From Botryllus schlosseri (taxonomy: Eukaryota), in the NCBI GenBank assembly GCA_051294905.1, contig CM119372.1:2296001-2360000 (forward strand): 64,000 bases of DNA, in the 5' to 3' direction. The notes below the pieces were generated by a model, which ran no database searches, was not told where the DNA came from, and saw only the letters and a list, made by a program, of their open reading frames with translations. Both the position numbers and the translations under genes were made by a program. Below are positions 618-63,725 of the stretch, one piece after another (the first letter of the stretch is position 1; the number at the start of each line of letters is the position of its first letter).

Positions 618-1254
618 GGTTTTCCTGCAAATGCTACTGAGAACTACACAGTGCACAGTGCGAAACGAACAATCTTGGTGTACAGACATTTGCTATGCTC
701 ATGAGAATGAACTTTGTTTTGATATGAACTGTACTTGATTCAATTTCTCAGGTTTTCGCGAATTCAGCAAGTCTAATTCTAATTTGAAAAAAACTGTGTA
801 GGTAGCTATAATTCAAATCTAAATACGGTGGATGTTTCAGGCAAAATTAGGCCTGGAATACCCATTTTATGTGCTTGTAAGTTGCTATTTCTACCTAATT
901 AGGAATTTACAAAGTTACTTCTACTCGAGTACCAGCCATGACTTTGGACCACCTTTGGTGGAAACTGGGGCATAAGCCGCACATTATAACTGCCATAGAG
1001 TTGAAGGGTAGAGTATCGAAACATCAGGGATGGGATTTAGGGCAAGGTTGGAGTTGAGGTATCATAATATTAAGGTTGGGAGTAAGAGCAATGGATACAC
1101 CACACCACAACTCTAAGTCAATTATAAACGGCATGAATTTGAACATATTCATGGGGAGCCCTGATTTGTGCTGGTCATGTTGTTGTGGATAAGAAAAACA
1201 CTAGACGTAGACTTGATATGATAAATACTATTATTGAAATGGATCATAAATTAC

Positions 1255-1479
1255 TTGTAAAGGGTATGGGCGATTAAATGGCCAAACTGCATCAGCAATT
1301 GACTTACCATAGCCAAATCCTACTTCAAGTACATGATCACTTTCTTGAGCTTTCAGTTTCAGGAAAGTCTCTTGCGTCAAGGGAGCATTTCTCTTCAGAA
1401 ATATCCTTGTCAGATACCCCCAAAATCCGGTAGAAGGCTTCCTCAGATGAGGAGAGATATATTTTGCGAATCTAGACAT
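1255..1479 (-). CDS. First coding exon of a class I SAM-dependent methyltransferase; remaining exons not found, probably left of the window
   Basis: MSRFAKYISPHLRKPSTGFWG...RNAPL...DHVLEVGFGYG contains SAM-binding motif I (ExGxGxG). Donor uncertain (exon end 1288 or 1255). Confidence 0.75.
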
Positions 1480-2260
1480 TTGTCAGCTCCGTGGAGATCT
1501 GCGTGTGGGTTTACAGCCTAAGATGCATATGTAGGGATGCTGCAAAACCCACAAAACGGCTGCTGTAGTACCTCAAACATGCTCTGGAAACTATTGTAAA
1601 ACTGAGGCTGGACAAGCTGTCCAGGTAATGCAGTGTCGCTGCACGATCTTTGAAGTTAACAATTTACCATGAATAACATCAATTCATGTAATCTTAATAC
1701 GTTATATATGTCTTACTATGCTGTGCATTGCGCAAGTGCGCAGGGGCAATAATGTTGCAACCACCAAAGTCATAGTTGAGTGACTTTGGCAACCACTCGC
1801 AATACCACTGTGATTCTATTAGAATTTTTGGCGAAAATCGGTGATCGGGTGAATCATGTAAATATACTCGGGTGTCATTACGTTTTGTGCTTTGGAAATT
1901 ACATAGGCATATTCATGAGCCTCTTGCCATACTATTTCTTGGTCATGTATTCAATGACAAATGCACGTAAACGACTGTTTTCGGGTGTAATTCCAGATAT
2001 AATGACGAAAGAACAATTTTAAGAAGACGAATAAATGCCAACCACACAGCCGTTTGACTGAATATTTTGCAAAGAAATCGTCAGAAATGTATCGATGATA
2101 ACGCTCAACAGACCATGTCTATCGACAATCCTTGGGTATAAATAATTAAATATATTTCGAAGAGTGCGGGAATGGTTTGACACCGGCGGCTGCTACGAAG
2201 AATCATCATTTTCTCGAATATATGATCACGACGAATAGCAGAACACTTTTTTAAAAGATT

Positions 2261-4477
2261 TAGGCTCCGGACTCTACATATATCTCATCAGAATCGAATT
2301 GAAATCGGACATTTTCGAAATTTCGGTAATCCGGACACAATTATGGCCCCAGTTCGACCCTTGGGACGTCGACTTGAATAATAATTTTGGTCTCGATAGA
2401 AGTGGCCAGACTAGTAGAGTTCATTTCAAAACGAATTAGGCTTCGGACTCTACATATATCTCATTAGAATCGAATTGAAATCGGACATTTTCGAAATTTC
2501 GGTAATCCGGACACAATTATGGCCCCAGTTCGACCCTTGGGACGTCGACTTGAATAATAATTTTGGTCTCGATAGAAGCGGCCGGACTAGTAGAATCCAT
2601 TTCAAAAAGAATTAGGCTTCGGACTCTACATATATCTCAATAGAATCGAATTGAAATCGGACATTTTCGAAATTTCGGTAATCCGGACACAATTATGGTC
2701 CCAGTTCGACCCTTGGGACGTCGACTTGAATAATAATTTTGGTCTCGATAGAAGTGGCCAGACTAGTAGAGTTCATTTCAAAACGAATTAGGCTTCGGAC
2801 TCTACATATATCTCATTAGAATCGAATTGAAATCGGACATTTTCGAAATTTCGGTAATCCGGACACAATTATGGCCCCAGTTCGATCCTTAGGACGTCGA
2901 CTTGAATACTAATTTTGGTCTCGATAGAAGCGGCCAGACTGGTAAAATACATTTCAAAAAGAAATAGGCTTCGGACTCTACATATATCTTATTAGAATCG
3001 AATTGAAATCGGACATTTTCGAAATTCTGATAATCCGGACACAATTATGGCCCCAGTTCGACCCTTGGGACGTCGACTTGAATAATCAATTTGGTTTCGA
3101 TAGAAGCGGCCAGACTAGTAGAATCCATTTCAAAAAGAATTAGGCTTCGGACTCTACATATATCTGAATAGAATCGAATTGAAATCGGACATTTTCGAAA
3201 TTTCGGTAATCCGGACACAATTATGGTCCCAGTTCGACCCTTGGGACGTCGACTTGAATAATCAATTTGGTCTCGATGAAAGCGGCCAAACTAGTAGAAT
3301 CCATTTCAAAAAGAATTAGGCTTCGGACTCTACATATATCTCATTAGAATCGAATTGAAATAGGACATTTTCGAAATTCTGATAATCCGGACACAATTAT
3401 GGCCCCAGTTCGATCCTTAGGACGTCGACTTGAATACTAATTTTGGTCTCGATAGAAGCGGCCAGACTGGTAAAATACATTTCAAAAAGAAATAGGCTTC
3501 GGACTCTACATATATCTTATTAGAATCGAATTGAAATCGGACATTTTCAAAATTCTGATAATCCGGACACAATTATGGCCCCCGTTCGACCCTTGAGACG
3601 TCGACTTGAATAACAATTTTGGTTTCGATAGAAGCGGCCAGACTAGTAGAATCCATTTCAAAAAGAATTAGGCTTCGGACTCTACATATATCTGAATAGA
3701 ATCGAATTGAAATCGGACATTTTCGAAATTTCGGTAATCCGGACACAATTATGGTCCCAGTTCGACCCTTGAGACGTCGACTTGAATAACAATTTTGGTT
3801 TCGATAGAAGCGGCCAGACTAGTAGAATCCATTTCAAAAAGAATTAGGCTTCGGACTCTACATATATCTGAATAGAATCGAATTGAAATCGGACATTTTT
3901 AAAATTTCGGTAATTCGGACACAATTATGGCCCCAGTTCGACCCTTGGGACGTCGACTTGAATATTAATTTTGGTCTCGATAGAAGCGGCCAGGCTATTA
4001 GAATCTATTTCAAGGAGAATTAGGCTTTGGACTCTACATATATCTCATTAGAATCGAATTGGAATAGGACATTTTCGAAATTCTGATAATCCGGACACAA
4101 TAATGGCCCCAGTTCGGCCCTTGGGACGTCGACTTGAATAATAATTTTGGTCTCGATAGAAGCGGCATGACTGGTAGAATTCATTTCAAAACGAATTAGG
4201 CTTCGGACTTTACATATATCTCATTAGAATCGAATTGAAATAGGACATTCTCGAAATTCTGATAATCCGGACACAATTATGGCCCCAGTTCGACTCTTGG
4301 GACGTCGACTTGAATAATAATTTTGGTCTCAATAGAAGCGGCCAAACTAGTAGAATCCATTTCAAAAAGAATTAGGCTTCGGACTCTACACATATTTTTC
4401 AATAGAATCGAATTGAAATTGGACATTTTCGAAATTTCGATAATCCGGACACAATTATGGACCCGTTTGATTCTTGG
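2261..4477 (+). repeat. 176-bp tandem satellite array, ~12.6 copies (left arm)
   Basis: Unit starts (tagg) recur at 2261, 2437, 2613, 2789 ... 4021, 4197, 4373. Confidence 0.97.
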
Positions 4478-4711
4478 GTTTGAATTGTATAAGTTATCTA
4501 TGGCTCTACTCTATCCTTTTATTCAACGTATATATGTAAGTACACAGCTGATAAGCCTGAAAGAATGAACAATGCCTTCTCCAATGATACAGACCAATAA
4601 AAGAACACTGTAGCAAGTCCGATTTTGTAACTTTTTTCGCAATGTAGGAATGTACAAGATGATGATAACAAGTACGGGAAAGCACATTCAAAATTGTGGC
4701 TGTTCTATTAA

Positions 4712-5296
4712 TCAAATTATTATCATAGATGAGTAACATCCTAGGAGTTCTTCAGCGTCTTTGTAATTGAGTTTTTTTTTTAACATGGTTAGTTTGATTA
4801 TAATTTCAATCAAAATTACAAGTTCAAAATATGAATGGACTTTGAAATCTGGTTTCAAAAATTTCATAATATCACAGTTTTCTGCAATAACGCCAGGGTT
4901 GATTACTTCAATTGTTAATTCCCCTGGTCGAGAAAGTATTCTGCCGGATGCATTTGAATTATTCGCAAACGTCCTCAGTAAGCAAAGTTTCGACTTGACG
5001 TACTTCCACACCGAGAATACGTCATTGTATTCCCAAATCGAATTTGTAAAGCCATGCATTTTCAACCTGTCATGATTTTTTGATAGCAGAAAAAGCTGGT
5101 GTCGATGAAGGTGTTGCTGCTCTTGATTTGAATTGCTTAGCGAGCTTACGGAAATGCTCCTTATGTGTTCAAATATTTCTTCGATTTGTTCCGCCGACAA
5201 AATTTCCGGGATCGGTGCTTGAAATGTCTTGAAAATCGGTACTCTCTCGTATATAACCGGTGATGAAGATTCCGGCAATTTGCGGCGCTTTCCCAT
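4712..5296 (-). CDS. Orphan 194-aa ORF in the foldback loop
   Basis: ATG-initiated open frame in AT-rich DNA with basic N-terminus MGKRRK; no recognised domain. Confidence 0.4.
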   Translation of the reverse strand: MGKRRKLPESSSPVIYERVPIFKTFQAPIPEILSAEQIEEIFEHIRSISVSSLSNSNQEQQHLHRHQLFLLSKNHDRLKMHGFTNSIWEYNDVFSVWKYVKSKLCLLRTFANNSNASGRILSRPGELTIEVINPGVIAENCDIMKFLKPDFKVHSYFELVILIEIIIKLTMLKKKLNYKDAEELLGCYSSMIII

Positions 5297-5590
5297 AGAA
5301 ATTTTGTCTTGGTGCGTGATTACATCGTCATCCTCGGAGCTCTATTCGATCAGCAGATGCGGTCTTTTAAGATCGTTTCTGAAATAATTAAAACGTTTAC
5401 TGATGTGATATTTAAAAAAATGTATAAATTTCTTGCTCTGTCGTCTAATTATATTGTATCCTATAAGACAGTGAAAATAGAAAAGATTGTAGAGAGCTAC
5501 AGTTACGGAATTAATTGAACTCGCACTTAAACTTTTCTTTTTCGATTAGAATATGCTACATAGTATTCAATAGGGAGGGTGTGAACATAG

Positions 5591-6149
5591 AAGGGTTATA
5601 ACCAAGTCACAATTCAATCTCACTTTTATAGTTTTGACTCGAGTAAAGTCGAGTCATTTTTAATTCACCACCGAGTCAAGTCCGAGTCTAATTCAGCGAG
5701 CAGTGGGTCGAGTACGAGTCGTGGTATTATGACTCGAGTGCGAGTTCAAATCATTGCGTTTACTGCTCACTGCTCAGTTTCGAATTAACGTCTTGATGAA
5801 AACCACTTATTATAACTCTGTTCGGTGATATCGAATAGTTCGCACTAAAGATATACAAATTTCATCACTTTCAACAGTTTCTGGTCGCATTTTCAAGTAC
5901 CAGTACGAATAGGCGAAATACCAACAGTGTGGTCACTTTGCTATTCTTTTAAATAACAATGAAATGTTGGCCTTGACCGTTGGAATTCGATTCATATGAC
6001 TATTGACTTGGTGCGAGTCATGAGCAATGACTCGAGTCCAAGTCGAGTCAATACACAGATTAACTTGACTCGAGTTGAGTCATTTTCGCATTTTGATAAA
6101 AGCCAAGTCGAGTCATCCAAAAATCATGACTCGAGTCATTGCAACCCTG
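5591..6149 (+). mobile_element. hAT-derived MITE (GACTCGAGTC family) nested in the foldback loop
   Basis: Ends AAGGGTTATAACC...GCAACCCTG; TSD gaacatag/gaccatag (7/8 match). Confidence 0.85.
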
Positions 6150-6437
6150 GACCATAGTGTGGTGTTGCCACAGCGCTATTGAACGGCTTACTGCATTTAG
6201 TTTACGACACACTTTCCATTTGTCCAAAGGCAATTCAGTAGCCTCGCCCTACAGGAACTTTTCCGCAAACTAAGAACACCAACTAAATGTCTTCATGCAA
6301 GTAATCAGAGGTGTGCACCTAGCAAGATAGCTGCGGATACCAATTTTCGAGTCTTTGGTGTGACCCGGCCGGGGATCGAACCTACGTCCTACCGATCGAC
6401 AGGCCGGACGGACGTATCACCATTGCACTATCTCTCC
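6150..6437 (-). mobile_element. tRNA-derived SINE (body resembles the Meta-type central domain)
   Basis: Minus strand: A box TAGTGCAATGG, B box GGTTCGATCCC, then GGGTCACACCAAAGACT..AAAATTGGTA; 3' boundary approximate; Meta assignment from memory. Confidence 0.7.
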
Positions 6438-6512
6438 AGCAGAAGTTTAAGTAATATCTTAAATTTCTACCCAATTAGAGGTAGGAATCGATATCCAAGA
6501 ACGTGAGAGGTC

Positions 6513-7257
6513 TTAAAAGCATTCAAGTAAGTAGTTTCAAAAAGTAGATTTGGTCGAGGCGTCATATGATCTTGGTATTCGATCAGAGGTGACAGTTCTC
6601 AAAACTGAAAGATGCATCATCGCAGACAATGCAAAATGATAAATCAGTTGCTCTGAGTTTGAATTGAATTGATGTAACTATCAAAATTCATACCGTCAGC
6701 ACCAGGACTCCACAGTTAAAAGTGTCGGTTTGGGCATCGTGTGGAAAGCATTTTACGGTCCAATCCGCGGAATTCGCGGGCTCGGGCTTGTGATAACTCC
6801 AGTACCCTCTAATTTTCGATAAACCAAGCAATGAAATTACTTCTTCAATTTTACCTTCTCAATAATCTCACCGCCAGTGTTGCAACAAAGTTTTTGCGTA
6901 GACCTCTTCATTGCCAAGGGAATCGTAAACATAAAGAATCTTTGCTTCTATGTCGTTGGCCTCAACAAAAACGCAAAGCGAGGTTTTATGGCTGCTAAAC
7001 AGCATGCAGCCAAAATTATATCAAGAAAATTGATTACCATAAAAATCCAATGATTACCAAGGTCAATAGATGCTACGATTGATTTTTCAAGTGGGTTCTG
7101 CATCTAAACATACTACGCATTACGGCCCATTCCAAATAATGCCATGAGGAATGCGATGATGCGGTACCTTTTTGGTGTGTGACTTTCCGTGGAAAAGACC
7201 CTGGTACCACCATTGTGTCGAAAGCTGACAAGAAACGAAGTTATCGGGTTTCTCATT
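6513..7257 (-). pseudogene. Spliced Ulp1/SENP-like cysteine protease (peptidase C48) gene remnant
   Basis: GT-AG exons 7257(or 7224)-7168, 7103-7038, 6960-6872, 6808-6694 join in frame: ...SIDLGNHWIFM-ANDIEAKILYVYDSLGNEE...FPHDAQTDTFNCGVLVLT (His, Asp, Gln, Cys). Next exon 6604-6513 appears disrupted; no start exon found. Confidence 0.85.
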
Positions 7258-7344
7258 CTAACGCGAATTGAACGGCATTGATATTTCACAATACTTTAAC
7301 ATAATTAGCGAACAATAATAATGTTACCTTTATACACACAAAAA

Positions 7345-7682
7345 TGATAAATTTTTCCCGACTTTGTGGTTGGTTGACTTAAAGAAAGGTCATTTTCCGA
7401 CTTGGCTCTAGAAATTCACGCTTTTGCTGAATTCTTCGTAGATTGACTAAAATAGACAAAAATGTCGACTTTCCAGCTCAGCTCCCGGAATGTCCTCCGG
7501 AACGTTACTCCGGTGCTGATTTACTGTACCTCAGTCGAATTTCACCCTATATATTTAACCATAATTCGCAAACAAATAGGACAAAATCTAAAAAAAACAG
7601 AAATTTGAGCGTCCTCCGGGGACACTTTCAAAATAGTCAAAAAATAGGACAAATCCTCTTTAAAGGAGGTAATGTAACCCTA
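7345..7682. mobile_element. Partial hAT-like MITE (TAGGGTTACC-ended family; related copies 15221-16223, 22660-22940)
   Basis: Shared aggacaaatcc and ggacactttc motifs and terminal gtaacccta; left boundary approximate. Confidence 0.55.
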
Positions 7683-7759
7683 ACATTACTACAGATTACT
7701 TCTGCACAAAAGTTAGCTGTACAATATCAGCTGCTCGTCAACAGAGTGCTGGACGAACA

Positions 7760-10700
7760 GACGCCCCGGGTCAAGCGGGGCCCAATTTGTAATTCGGGTA
7801 CCCAAATTTCGGAAATGCCCAATTTCAATTCCATTCTAATGAGATATATGTAGAGTCCGAAGCCTAATTCTTTTTGAAATGGATTTTAATAGTCTGGCCG
7901 CTTCTATCGAGACCAAAATTATTATTCAAGTCGACGTCCCAAGGGTCGAACTGGGGCCATAATTGTGTCCGGATAATCAGAATTTCGAAAATGTCCGATT
8001 TCAATTCGATTCTATTGAGAGATATGTAGAGTCCGAAGCCTAATTCTTTTTGAAATGGATTCTACTAGTCTGGCCGCTTCTATCGAGACCAAATTAATTA
8101 TTCAAGTCGACGTCCCAAGGGTCGAACTGGGGCCATAATTGTGTCCGGATTATCAGAATTTCGAAAATGTCCTATTTCAATTCGATTCTAATGAGATATA
8201 TGTAGAGTCCGAAGCCTAATTCGTTTTGAAATGAATTCTACTTGTCTGGCCGCTTCTATCGAGACCAAAATTATTATTCAAGTCGACGTCCCAAGGGTCG
8301 AACTGGGGCCATAATTGTGTCCGGATAATCAGAATTTCGAAAATGTCCGATTTCAATTCGATTCTATTGAGAGATATGTAGAGTCCGAAGCCTAATTCTT
8401 TTTGAAATGGATTCTACTAGTCTGGCCGCTTCTATCGAGACCAAATTGATTATTCAAGTCGACGTCCCAAGGGTCGAACTGGGGCCATAATTGTGTCCGG
8501 AATACCGAAATTTCGAAAATGTCCGATTTCAATTCGATTCTAATGAGATATATGTAAAGTCCGAAGCCTAATTCGTTTTGAAATGAATTTTACTAGTCTG
8601 GCCGCTTCTATCGAGACCAAAATTAGTATTCAAGTCGACGTCCCAAGGGTCGAACTGGGGCCATAATTGTGTCCGGAATACCGAAATTTCGAAAATGTCC
8701 GATTTCAATTCGATTCTAATGATATATATGTAAAGTCCGAAGCCTAACTCGTTTTGAAATGAATTCTACTAGTCTGGCCGCTTCTATCGAAACCAAATTG
8801 ATTATTCAAGTCGACGTCCCAAGGGTCGAACTGGGGCCATAATTGTGTCCGGAATACCGAAATTTCGAAAATGTCCGATTTCAATTCGATTCTAATGATA
8901 TATATGTAAAGTCCGAAGCCTAACTCGTTTTGAAATGAATTCTACTAGTCTGGCCGCTTCTATCGAAACCAAATTGATTATTCAAGTCGACGTCCCAAGG
9001 GTCGAACTGGGGCCATAATTGTGTCCGGAATACCGAAATTTCGAAAATGTCCGATTTCAATTCGATTCTATTGAGAGATATGTAGAGTCCGAAGCCTAAC
9101 TCGTTTTGAAATGAATTCTACTAGTCTGGCCGCTTCTATCGAAACCAAATTGATTATTCAAGTCGACGTCCCAAGGGTCGAACTGGGGCCATAATTGTGT
9201 CCGGAATACCGAAATTTCGAAAATGTCCGATTTCAATTCGATTCTAATGAGATATATGTAAAGTCCGAAGCCTAATTCGTTTTGAAATGAATTTTACTAG
9301 TCTGGCCGCTTCTATCGAGACCAAAATTATTATTCAAGTCGACGTCCCAAGGGTCAAACTGGGGCCATAATTGTGTCCGGATAATCAGAATTTCGAAAAT
9401 GTCCGATTTCAATTCCATTCTATTGAGATATATGTAGAGTCCGAAGCCTAATTCTTTTTGAAATGGATTCTACTAGTCTGGCCGCTTCTATCGAAACCAA
9501 ATTAATTATTCAAGTCGACGTCCCAAGGGTCGAACTGGGGCCATAATTGTGTCCGGATTATCAGAATTTCGAAAATGTCCTATTTCAATTCGATTCTAAT
9601 GAGATATATGTAGAGTCCGAAGCCTAATTCGTTTTGAAATGAATTCTACTAGTCTGGCCGCTTCTATCGAGACCAAATTAATTATTCAAGTCGACGTCCC
9701 AAGGGTCGAACTGGGGCCATAATTGTGTCCGGATTATCAGAATTTCGAAAATGTCCGATTTCAATTCGATTCTATTGAGAGATATGTAGAGTCCGAAGCC
9801 TAATTCTTTTTGAAATGGATTCTACTAGTCTGGCCGCTTCTATCGAGACCAAATTAATTATTCAAGTCGACGTCCCAAGGGTCGAACTGGGGCCATAATT
9901 GTGTCCGGATTATCAGAATTTCGAAAATGTCCTATTTCAATTCGATTCTAATGAGATATATGTAGAGTCCGAAGCCTAATTCGTTTTGAAATGAATTCTA
10001 CTTGTCTGGCCGCTTCTATCGAGACCAAAATTATTATTCAAGTCGACGTCCCAAGGGTCGAACTGGGGCCATAATTGTGTCCGGATAATCAGAATTTCGA
10101 AAATGTCCGATTTCAATTCGATTCTATTGAGAGATATGTAGAGTCCGAAGCCTAATTCTTTTTGAAATGGATTCTACTAGTCTGGCCGCTTCTATCGAGA
10201 CCAAATTAATTATTCAAGTCGACGTCCCAAGGGTCGAACTGGGGCCATAATTGTGTCCGGATTATCAGAATTTCGAAAATGTCCTATTTCAATTCGATTC
10301 TAATGAGATATATGTAGAGTCCGAAGCCTAATTCGTTTTGAAATGAATTCTACTTGTCTGGCCGCTTCTATCGAGACCAAAATTATTATTCAAGTCGACG
10401 TCCCAAGGGTCGAACTGGGGCCATAATTGTGTCCGGAATACCGAAATTTCGAAAATGTCCGATTTCAATTCGATTCTAATGAGATATATGTAAAGTCCGA
10501 AGCCTAATTCGTTTTGAAATAAATTCTACTTGTCTGGCCGCTTCTATCGAGACCAAAATTATTATTCAAGTCGACGTCCCAAGGGTCGAACTGGGGCCAT
10601 AATTGTGTCCGGAATACCGAAATTTCGAAAATGTCCGATTTCAATTCGATTCTAATAAGATATATGTAAAGTCCGAAGCCTAATTCGCTTTGAAATGAAT

Positions 10701-11225
10701 TCTACTAGTCTGGCCGCTTCTATCGAGACCAAATTTATTATTCAAGTCGACGTCTCAAGGGTCGAACTGGGGCCATAATTGTGTCCGGATTACCGAAATT
10801 TCGAAAATGTCCGATTTCAATTCGATTCTAATGAGATATATGTAAAGTCCGAAGCCTAATTCGTTTTGAAATGAATTCTACTAGTCTGGCCGCTTCTATC
10901 GAGACCAAAATTATTATTCAAGTCGACGTCCCAAGGGTCGAACTGGGGCCATAATTGTGTCTGGATTACCGAAATTTCGAAAATGTCCGATTTCAATTCG
11001 ATTCTAATGAGATATATGTAAAGTCCGAAGCCTAATTCGTTTTGAAATGAATTCTACTAGTCTGGCCGCTTCTATCGAGACCAAAATTATTATTCAAGTC
11101 GACGTCCCAAGGGTCGAACTGGGGCCATAATTGTGTCCGGATTACCGAAATTTCGAAAATGTCCGATTTCAATTCGATTCTGATGAGATATATGTAGAGA
11201 TATGTAGAGATATATGTAGAGCCTA
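7760..11225 (-). repeat. 176-bp tandem satellite array, ~19.6 copies (right arm, inverted relative to left)
   Basis: ccta recurs at 7863, 8039 ... 11031 (176-bp period); sequence is the reverse complement of the left-arm unit. Confidence 0.97.
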
Positions 11226-12406
11226 AATCTTTTAAAAAAGTGTTCTGCTATTCGTCGTGATCATATATTCGAGAAAATGATGATTCTTCGTAGCAGCCGC
11301 CGGGGTCAAACCATTCCCGCACTCTTCCAAATATATTTATACCCAAGGATTGTCGATAGACATGGTCTGTTGAGCGTTATCATCGATACATTTCTGACGA
11401 TTTCTTTGCAAAATATTCAGTCAAACGGCTGTGTAGTAGGCATTTATTCGTCTTCTTAAAATTGTTCTTTCGTCATTATATCTGGAATTACACCCGAAAA
11501 CAGTCGTTTACGTGCATTTGTCATTGAATACATGACCAAGAAATAGTATGGCAAGAGGCTCCTGAATATGCCGATGTAATTTCCAAAGCACAAAACGTAA
11601 TGACACCCGAGTATATTTCCATGATTCACCCGATCACCGATTTTCGCCAAAAATTCTAATAGAATCACAGTGGTCTCGCAATCATCGCAACTGGCAAAGC
11701 GCTTTTTTGTTTACAATATCTTGTGGCGTTTTTCATGGTTCGATGCCGACAACCACTGTGAGCTGTTAGCCCACCCCGGGGATACGAGATAGATTACTTG
11801 GATATGGCGAACAAAACCACTTGCGTTGTAATTACCAAGCAAACAACACCTCTGGATTTGAAGCTCAATTCCGGAACAGGATTGGGATTTGGGAAAATAT
11901 TGCATCCGTTCGTCTCTGCCGATGATATATGGATGAACAGACATTTAATGTGAATTTTGAAGACTTAGCCTAGTCCTGGAAATCAAATAGCACATACATT
12001 TGTACTATCATGAAATGAAGTCTGGTTGTATGTAGCAAGTGCTGGTAGTAGAAATACTTCGCCCCTCCTGCTATTGTTCATTGGAATGAGAGTTACATCA
12101 GAATCCTATCCATCCTAGCTAGACATACCATAACAGATTCATTTCATTCCAATTTCTTTTATCGATTGAAAATACTACATGTAATAAGATTGAAGAACCT
12201 TCTCTACTCACACCGGTTTTGCCTGTTGTTATTCAATCATGAGACATGTCTCTCTGTAAACCCACGAGCGATATGCAGTGCACTAATTAGTCTACCTTGA
12301 AGAGCAATTCCATGATCCTGATACATCGGCTACCAACTTTAGGAAAAAAATGTACGAGAAGCTCTGTATAATGCATGCAATATGAACCTATACTTTGCTC
12401 CATATG

Positions 12407-12412
12407 TTTATT
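12407..12412 (-). promoter_or_regulatory. Candidate polyadenylation signal AATAAA of the mosaic gene
   Basis: tttatt on + strand, ~110 nt downstream of the TAG at 12521-12523. Confidence 0.45.
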
Positions 12413-12520
12413 GAGCTAAAACAAAGGCACAACACGGAATCATCGAACAACTATTCACATTAACGTCAAGGTAGATTGATCTGAATAGTGCAAGTCGATG
12501 CAAGCAGTCATTCATTTTGC

Positions 12521-63725
<51,205 letters not shown>

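Follow-up and report, generated by a model that had tools for sequence, protein, structure and literature searches.

A 9.9-kb foldback transposon of Botryllus schlosseri with satellite-filled arms and a predicted Ulp1-type protease gene fragment in its loop

Ends, arms and satellite arrays

The 64,000-nucleotide stretch of Botryllus schlosseri DNA analysed here (the window; assembly GCA_051294905.1, contig CM119372.1, positions 2,296,001 to 2,360,000 of the forward strand) contains a foldback-type DNA transposon of 9.9 kb at positions 1804–11674. It has long modular terminal inverted repeats (TIRs) with internal tandem repeats, a target-site duplication (TSD) and dispersed copies sharing its terminus, and its loop is predicted to carry a disrupted gene encoding a Ulp1/C48-type protease domain. 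Directly outside each end lies the exact 8-mer CTCGCAAT (1796–1803 and 11675–11682, both plus strand), in agreement with the perfect 8-bp TSD claimed in the initial annotation; the duplication was read at this one copy only, and a contig of another sample covers the left flank to exactly 1803. The occurrence of this 8-mer at the second end by chance is expected at about 1.2e-5, and when the boundary was moved for a TSD of 5, 9 or 10 bp, none was found to fit on reading the sequence. Both ends of the element open with 5′-ACCACTGTG, and terminus 1804 is also the starting point for the loose ends of other copies.

The outermost part of each arm is a non-repetitive TIR domain, 457 bp long on the left (1804–2260, plus strand, start ACCACTGTG) and 449 bp long on the right (11226–11674, minus strand). 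The two differ by 7 substitutions over 449 aligned bases and by one 8-bp indel, which bears out the near-identical outer inverted repeats of about 450 bp noted initially; the right arm and many contigs of the family lack the 8 extra bases of the left domain. A 12-bp tandem duplication marks the junction of the right array with its outer domain (11185–11221, minus strand). Transib/RAG-like transposons have CAC termini and a 5-bp TSD; such an assignment was rejected for the present element since CACTGTG begins 2 bases inside the end, lacks a flanking 5-bp TSD, and other copies end at 1804. Matches to the terminal motif, 13 in genomes and 2 in viral sequences, were dismissed as chance 17–26-mers, and metagenome contigs gave 0 matches.

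Inward from the outer domains, both arms consist of tandem arrays of a 176-bp unit, the limits and copy numbers of which were taken from Tandem Repeats Finder. The left array (2253–4478, plus strand) holds 12.6 copies, as estimated before, with a mean pairwise difference of 7.3% among 11 full units, and the inverted right array (7799–11199, minus strand) holds 19.3 copies instead of the earlier estimate of about 19.6, with a mean pairwise difference of 4.6% among 16 full units. The arrays run in opposite orientation, with some 93% complementarity across 2.1 kb without gaps, and enclose a loop of 3,320 bp (4479–7798), matching the loop of about 3.3 kb proposed at first. Since the arms measure 2,675 bp (left) and 3,876 bp (right), a stem of more than 2.5 kb, also suggested initially, would be possible in single-stranded DNA.

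Units were compared for 27 of the 29 segments, one 178-bp unit and one 352-bp double unit being dropped. No identical pair was found between the 11 left and the 16 right units, the closest differing at 3 sites and the average left-versus-right difference being 6.6%, while sets of identical units occur inside the right arm (R06=R08=R17, R07=R16 and R12=R13). This pattern is consistent with local duplication in each arm and not with a mirrored read. Both arrays decay and end at nearly the same unit register (4460–4480 and 7760–7800), suggesting an ancestral inner boundary.

Contents of the loop

The surviving gene fragment lies on the minus strand of the loop. Its predicted exons are exon 1 (7168–7257), exon 2 with the catalytic histidine in the motif HW (7038–7103), exon 3 with the motif YDSL and an uncommon GAG acceptor (6872–6960), exon 4 with the glutamine and catalytic cysteine motif Q..NCG (6694–6808), and exon 5, in which a premature TGA occupies the second codon and the 3′ boundary of which is uncertain (6473–6604). 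The GT-AG introns following exons 1–4 measure 64, 77, 63 and 89 nt, and 120 codons stay open across them; the loop yielded no 5′ part of the gene. In the predicted spliced product HW, DSLG and Q-x4-NCG follow one another in this order, corresponding to the HW/DSL/Q-NCG triad of the Ulp1 family. The window contains the triad a single time, and not one of 3,000 simulated loops contained it.

The spliced product was compared with a home-built profile of 19 bacterial PF02902 domains. Successive searches for PF02902 found 0 of 5, 0 of 301, 0 of 401, 13 of 401 and 3 of 401 genomes positive, and yielded 21 loci; the profile was built from 19 of these, after removal of a locus with an internal stop and of a further copy from a contig already represented. 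The product of five exons (164 amino acids, with the stop given as X) reached 19.8 bits (P 3.5e-8), as compared with top scores of 7.4 bits among 1,274 ORFs (open reading frames) of the window (by its index, the ORF of exon 2) and 6.6 bits among 1,000 shuffled sequences. His48, Asp65, Gln108 and Cys114 fall in profile columns kept in 19, 18, 17 and 18 of the 19 references, respectively, so that the His-Asp-Gln-Cys core of a C48/Ulp1-type peptidase (PF02902) is present in order and spacing in the predicted product. Pfam gave no transposase or C48 match on 29 ORF pieces from the loop and its edges, nor on an intron-containing read-through piece; these scans took single exons or ORF pieces and the read-through, as against the spliced product used with the home-built profile. 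From its sequence, the loop is thus predicted to carry a broken gene with a Ulp1/C48-type (SUMO-type) protease domain. Members of C48 vary in their target, which may be SUMO, ubiquitin or Nedd8 (PMC4822132), and substrate specificity is not readable from sequence.

The predicted last exon is an orphan ORF of 209 amino acids, counted from stop to stop (4712–5341, minus strand). Over 191 amino acids it shares 71% identity with P0002, one protein derived from Logan and assigned to no Pfam family. By eye, the tail of P0002 resembles a shifted frame of the window past 4724, which suggests a probable frameshift in the orphan ORF. P0002 was the only relative among 3,588 candidates, no longer relative was present among 329 candidates, the read-through piece had no homologue among 31, and PDB sequences gave 2 chance matches only. 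A Kelch/RAG2 identity of the ORF was rejected, the Atlas feature scores of 0.78–0.81 being below the bar of 0.9, the match to a Kelch protein reaching only E 7.6e-4 over 30 amino acids, and P0002 having no Kelch match in Pfam. The predicted structure has a pLDDT (predicted local distance difference test score) of 37.7. Taken together, the loop described at first as cargo is predicted to be mostly a spliced, broken Ulp1/C48-type gene with its orphan ORF.

An AATAAA polyadenylation-like signal (4518–4523, minus strand), which may be used by this gene, sits some 40 bp away from where the left arm meets the loop. Within the predicted intron ahead of the orphan ORF lies a nested dispersed repeat (5592–6149, unstranded), rich in GACTCGAGT and resembling a miniature inverted-repeat transposable element (MITE); it recurs widely elsewhere in the window, with matches of 69–92%. 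The stretch that separates the gene fragment from the right arm contains a fragment (7574–7660, unstranded) that is 77% like the dispersed repeat at 15523–15609. Beside the MITE-like repeat, a tRNA-like box motif seen by eye at 6290–6430 (minus strand) suggests a short interspersed nuclear element (SINE), with a weak match at 34273–34311; Rfam returned no match over 1000–13000, the SINE-like stretch included.

Copies of the family and the insertion site

Four public runs, including X1, X11, X12 and the RNA run X23, were aligned to positions 900–2240; X1 and X11 are conspecific runs, X11 being another sample and X1 possibly the source sample, and X12 is labelled as another organism. The summed depth of the outer repeat relative to the flank was 193–537 in X1, 72–192 in X11 and 17–57 in X12, values that are rough ratios only, summed contig depth not being equal to copy number. 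The family is multi-copy, with many arms, of the order of hundreds. Depth rises abruptly at the element terminus, and in 8 RNA reads of X23 and 2 contigs of X12 the loose ends in front of 1804 do not resemble the local flank, which indicates that the terminus is common to other insertions. The absence of other copies with these termini and TSDs had been named initially as a ground for abandoning the transposon; insertions with the same terminus are seen here in both X23 and X12.

A 1,277-nt contig of X11 (record 9) covers 900–1803, its alignment ending at the last base of the TSD; a further 229 letters of it were not aligned to the repeat. It likely represents an empty site, the element being absent from this locus in another individual. 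An empty site, the check proposed earlier, would give such a contig, the match of the 229 letters to the far flank being presumed. In X1, a junction contig has the haplotype of the window with no substitution up to 1830, and a divergent second haplotype (record 7) continues for at least 150 letters past 1764, none of them listed on the repeat, from which it follows that the insertion is probably present on one haplotype only. The earlier view of a recent insertion is probably correct.

The flanking haplotypes are very variable, with 70 substitutions and 43 gaps over about 900 bases (900–1803) in X11, and indels cluster at 1735–1800 beside the insertion site. At positions 2034, 2037 and 2091 and at their mirror sites, both arms hold alleles that nearly all of the aligned family depth is without; these shared rare alleles may reflect a minor subfamily or arm-to-arm conversion.

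Classification and origin of the element

No DDE transposase of the Mutator-like element (MULE) type was found in this copy by Pfam among the loop ORF pieces, and KDZ (PF18758), SWIM and SAP had no match in the same pieces of the truncated gene. The approximately 540 bp upstream of the first predicted exon, partly another repeat and without a Pfam match, leave too little room for a DDE core. With no transposase found and no room for one, this copy is non-autonomous, and the initial assignment to a non-autonomous foldback transposon with modular TIRs and a TSD holds. The 8-bp TSD and the 457-bp outer domain fit the ranges of MULEs, in which TIRs exceed 100 bp and TSDs are given as 8–10 or 8–11 bp (PMC5499845, PMC6446971), and the tandem repeats in or beside inverted termini that mark Rehavkus elements are found here as well. 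The likeliest superfamily is MULE/Rehavkus-like.

Foldback architecture, its link to satellites and Ulp1 domains on transposases are all already published. FB/FB-NOF and TU elements were named initially for comparison; the closest published architecture is that of Rehavkus and Tetris. Rehavkus elements (MuDR/MULE-associated; Rehavkus-1_TC and -3_TC of Tribolium) likewise have long inverted termini with variable satellite-length tandem repeats (2–12, 6–8 and up to 50 units) around a central part, the counts of 2–12 and up to 50 being reported for Tribolium (bioRxiv 10.1101/2024.12.02.626372), and Rehavkus-1_HR, at 10.7 kb, is in a comparable size range (PMC6446971). However, Rehavkus, of which few families are known, is described with a 9-bp TSD (PMC6446971), a PHD finger and a DDE domain, whereas the present copy has an 8-bp TSD, a Ulp1 fragment and the orphan ORF; given the difference in TSD, it cannot be filed as Rehavkus. 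Tetris of Drosophila virilis, proposed as a satellite source, likewise consists of an outer non-repetitive domain, units of about 220 bp in variable number and a middle domain without a transposase (PMC4079207). It is described as having no apparent coding capacity and 37 bp common to the unit and the outer domain, whereas the present loop is predicted to code and the likeness of unit and terminus is at chance level.

Modular TIRs with internal tandem repeats unequal in number between the arms are also reported for Muta1, Tm1 and Galileo (PMC5499845, PMC3169594, PMC3573991). Muta1 also makes TSDs of 8 or 9 bp, but differs in having 12-bp repeats in a 145-bp TIR as compared with 176-bp units (PMC5499845), Tm1 in its 9-bp TSD (PMC3169594), and Galileo in its 7-bp TSD and P-type transposase (PMC3573991); a protease is not mentioned in these accounts, as far as they were available, in contrast to the C48-type fragment of the present loop. 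Ulp1 domains have been reported on Mutator transposases of hydra, lancelet and plants and on Ginger1 (PMC2836005), as well as on Crypton elements (PMC3212892). The present element likewise combines a C48/Ulp1-type domain with a DNA transposon, here in a gene predicted to be spliced, but the next domain is an orphan of about 200 amino acids with one database relative instead of a PHD finger, and the transposase is missing.

The explanation that we moderately favour is a foldback DNA transposon with satellite-filled arms and without a recognisable transposase, likely inserted recently through a transposase that a complete relative provided, the Mutator/Rehavkus type being the most probable. The loop would then be what is left, on the 3′ side, of a multi-exon gene belonging to the element itself; its transposase part would have been deleted, and the remaining Ulp1 domain and orphan tail would later have acquired a stop, a frameshift and nested repeats. 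Such a deletion derivative would be moved in trans by cut-and-paste, the transposase cutting at the ACC termini and opening the target with a stagger of 8 bp. The 176-bp units may offer the transposase additional binding sites on the model of Muta1, in which 12-bp repeats are reported to strengthen transposase binding and excision (PMC5499845). Unequal exchange or slippage would change the number of units in each arm independently, unequal exchange of repeat units having been described for Tetris (PMC4079207) and Galileo (PMC3573991). An intact protease might strip SUMO or ubiquitin-like marks, thereby easing transposition or escaping silencing; a role of the Ulp1 protease in transposition has been suggested (PMC2836005).

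Several points weigh against this explanation. Pfam revealed no transposase in the loop ORF pieces, which leaves the superfamily unproven; the loop gave no PHD finger, the gene there being truncated at its 5′ side; and the TSD is 1 bp shorter than that of Rehavkus. The similarity between the terminus and the 176-bp unit is at chance level (532 of 1,000 shuffles were as good), and therefore a common binding motif is not demonstrated. The exon boundaries were set by eye with Ulp1-family motifs in mind, and exon 3 depends on the GAG acceptor. The empty site is deduced from the end of the X11 contig, the 229 further letters being known by count alone, and the X1 junction contig enters the repeat by 27 nt, below the bar of 31 nt, in a run that is possibly the source. 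Finally, the fraction of 346 loop words found in near-identical form was 0.38–0.47 in X1–X4, 0.10 in X11 and 0.08 in X12, figures to be read with the caveat that a divergence of 5% leaves about a fifth of words; the loop is thus scarce in near-identical form although the outer repeat is deep in X11 and X12, and may not be the usual interior of the family. No RNA run was among those listed as sharing loop words, which speaks neither for nor against expression.

This scarcity favours a different origin of the loop, namely that a real non-autonomous foldback of a gene-less family holds a foreign piece of another Ulp1 transposon, nested or captured in the manner of Pack-MULEs or FB-NOF. The lack of a 5′ end in the gene and the identity of only 71% to its sole relative found agree with such an origin. 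We nevertheless regard it as unlikely: the 3′ end of the gene and the polyadenylation-like signal adjoin the left arm in a native-like layout, a divergence of 5–7% alone would also cut word sharing, and an internal TIR/TSD pair around the gene was not noticed, although no systematic search was made. An assembly fold-back or inversion, considered initially, is highly improbable and largely ruled out. Assembly of long inverted repeats is difficult, and the unit counts of the arrays may be imperfect, but the TSD is exact, the arms differ in unit haplotypes, unit order and outer domains, the X1 junction contig is identical, and other copies have the same terminus.

Zisupton elements have a SUMO-protease domain and short TIRs. 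These short TIRs, together with the absence of KDZ, SWIM or SAP matches among the ORF pieces of the loop, make it rather doubtful that a Zisupton/KDZ-type (or other 8-bp-TSD) transposase mobilises the family, with foldback arms that arose convergently. The 8-bp TSD, the predicted protease domain and the multi-exon gene, its exons being predicted, do agree with Zisupton, the TSD of which is reported as 8 bp (PMC12730594) and which is described as multi-exonic (PMC9297572), and foldback arms are known in unrelated superfamilies (PMC3169594). A bolder proposal, in our judgement quite improbable, would be an undescribed active foldback lineage with an 8-bp TSD and ACC...GGT ends, present in each genome with hundreds of arms and bearing arrays of nucleosome-sized (176-bp) units, the transposase of which, possibly KDZ/Zisupton and not MULE, ends in a SUMO-type protease and a new family of anti-silencing domains of about 200 amino acids. 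No description of a Zisupton with satellite-filled arms was seen among literature titles and abstract openings.

A clean and probably polymorphic transposon, the element takes kilobases of satellite-length repeats with it and reshuffles them. It represents the setting proposed for satellite birth in Tetris and in Tribolium Rehavkus, and leaves general concepts unchanged. With many copies and a seemingly segregating site, the turnover of arrays between arms and copies could be measurable directly in long-read data.

Elsewhere in the window, a 287-bp dispersed repeat at 332–617 has copies of 94–96% at 18947–19233 and 41846–42132. Two related ORFs at 19331–19822 and 41282–41932 resemble 3′ fragments of a LINE-type element. 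An ORF at 23545–24024 (minus strand) looks by eye like a C-type lectin exon, the piece having no such match in Pfam, and a 74-bp tandem repeat at 61571–61818 comprises 3.4 copies with 98% matches.

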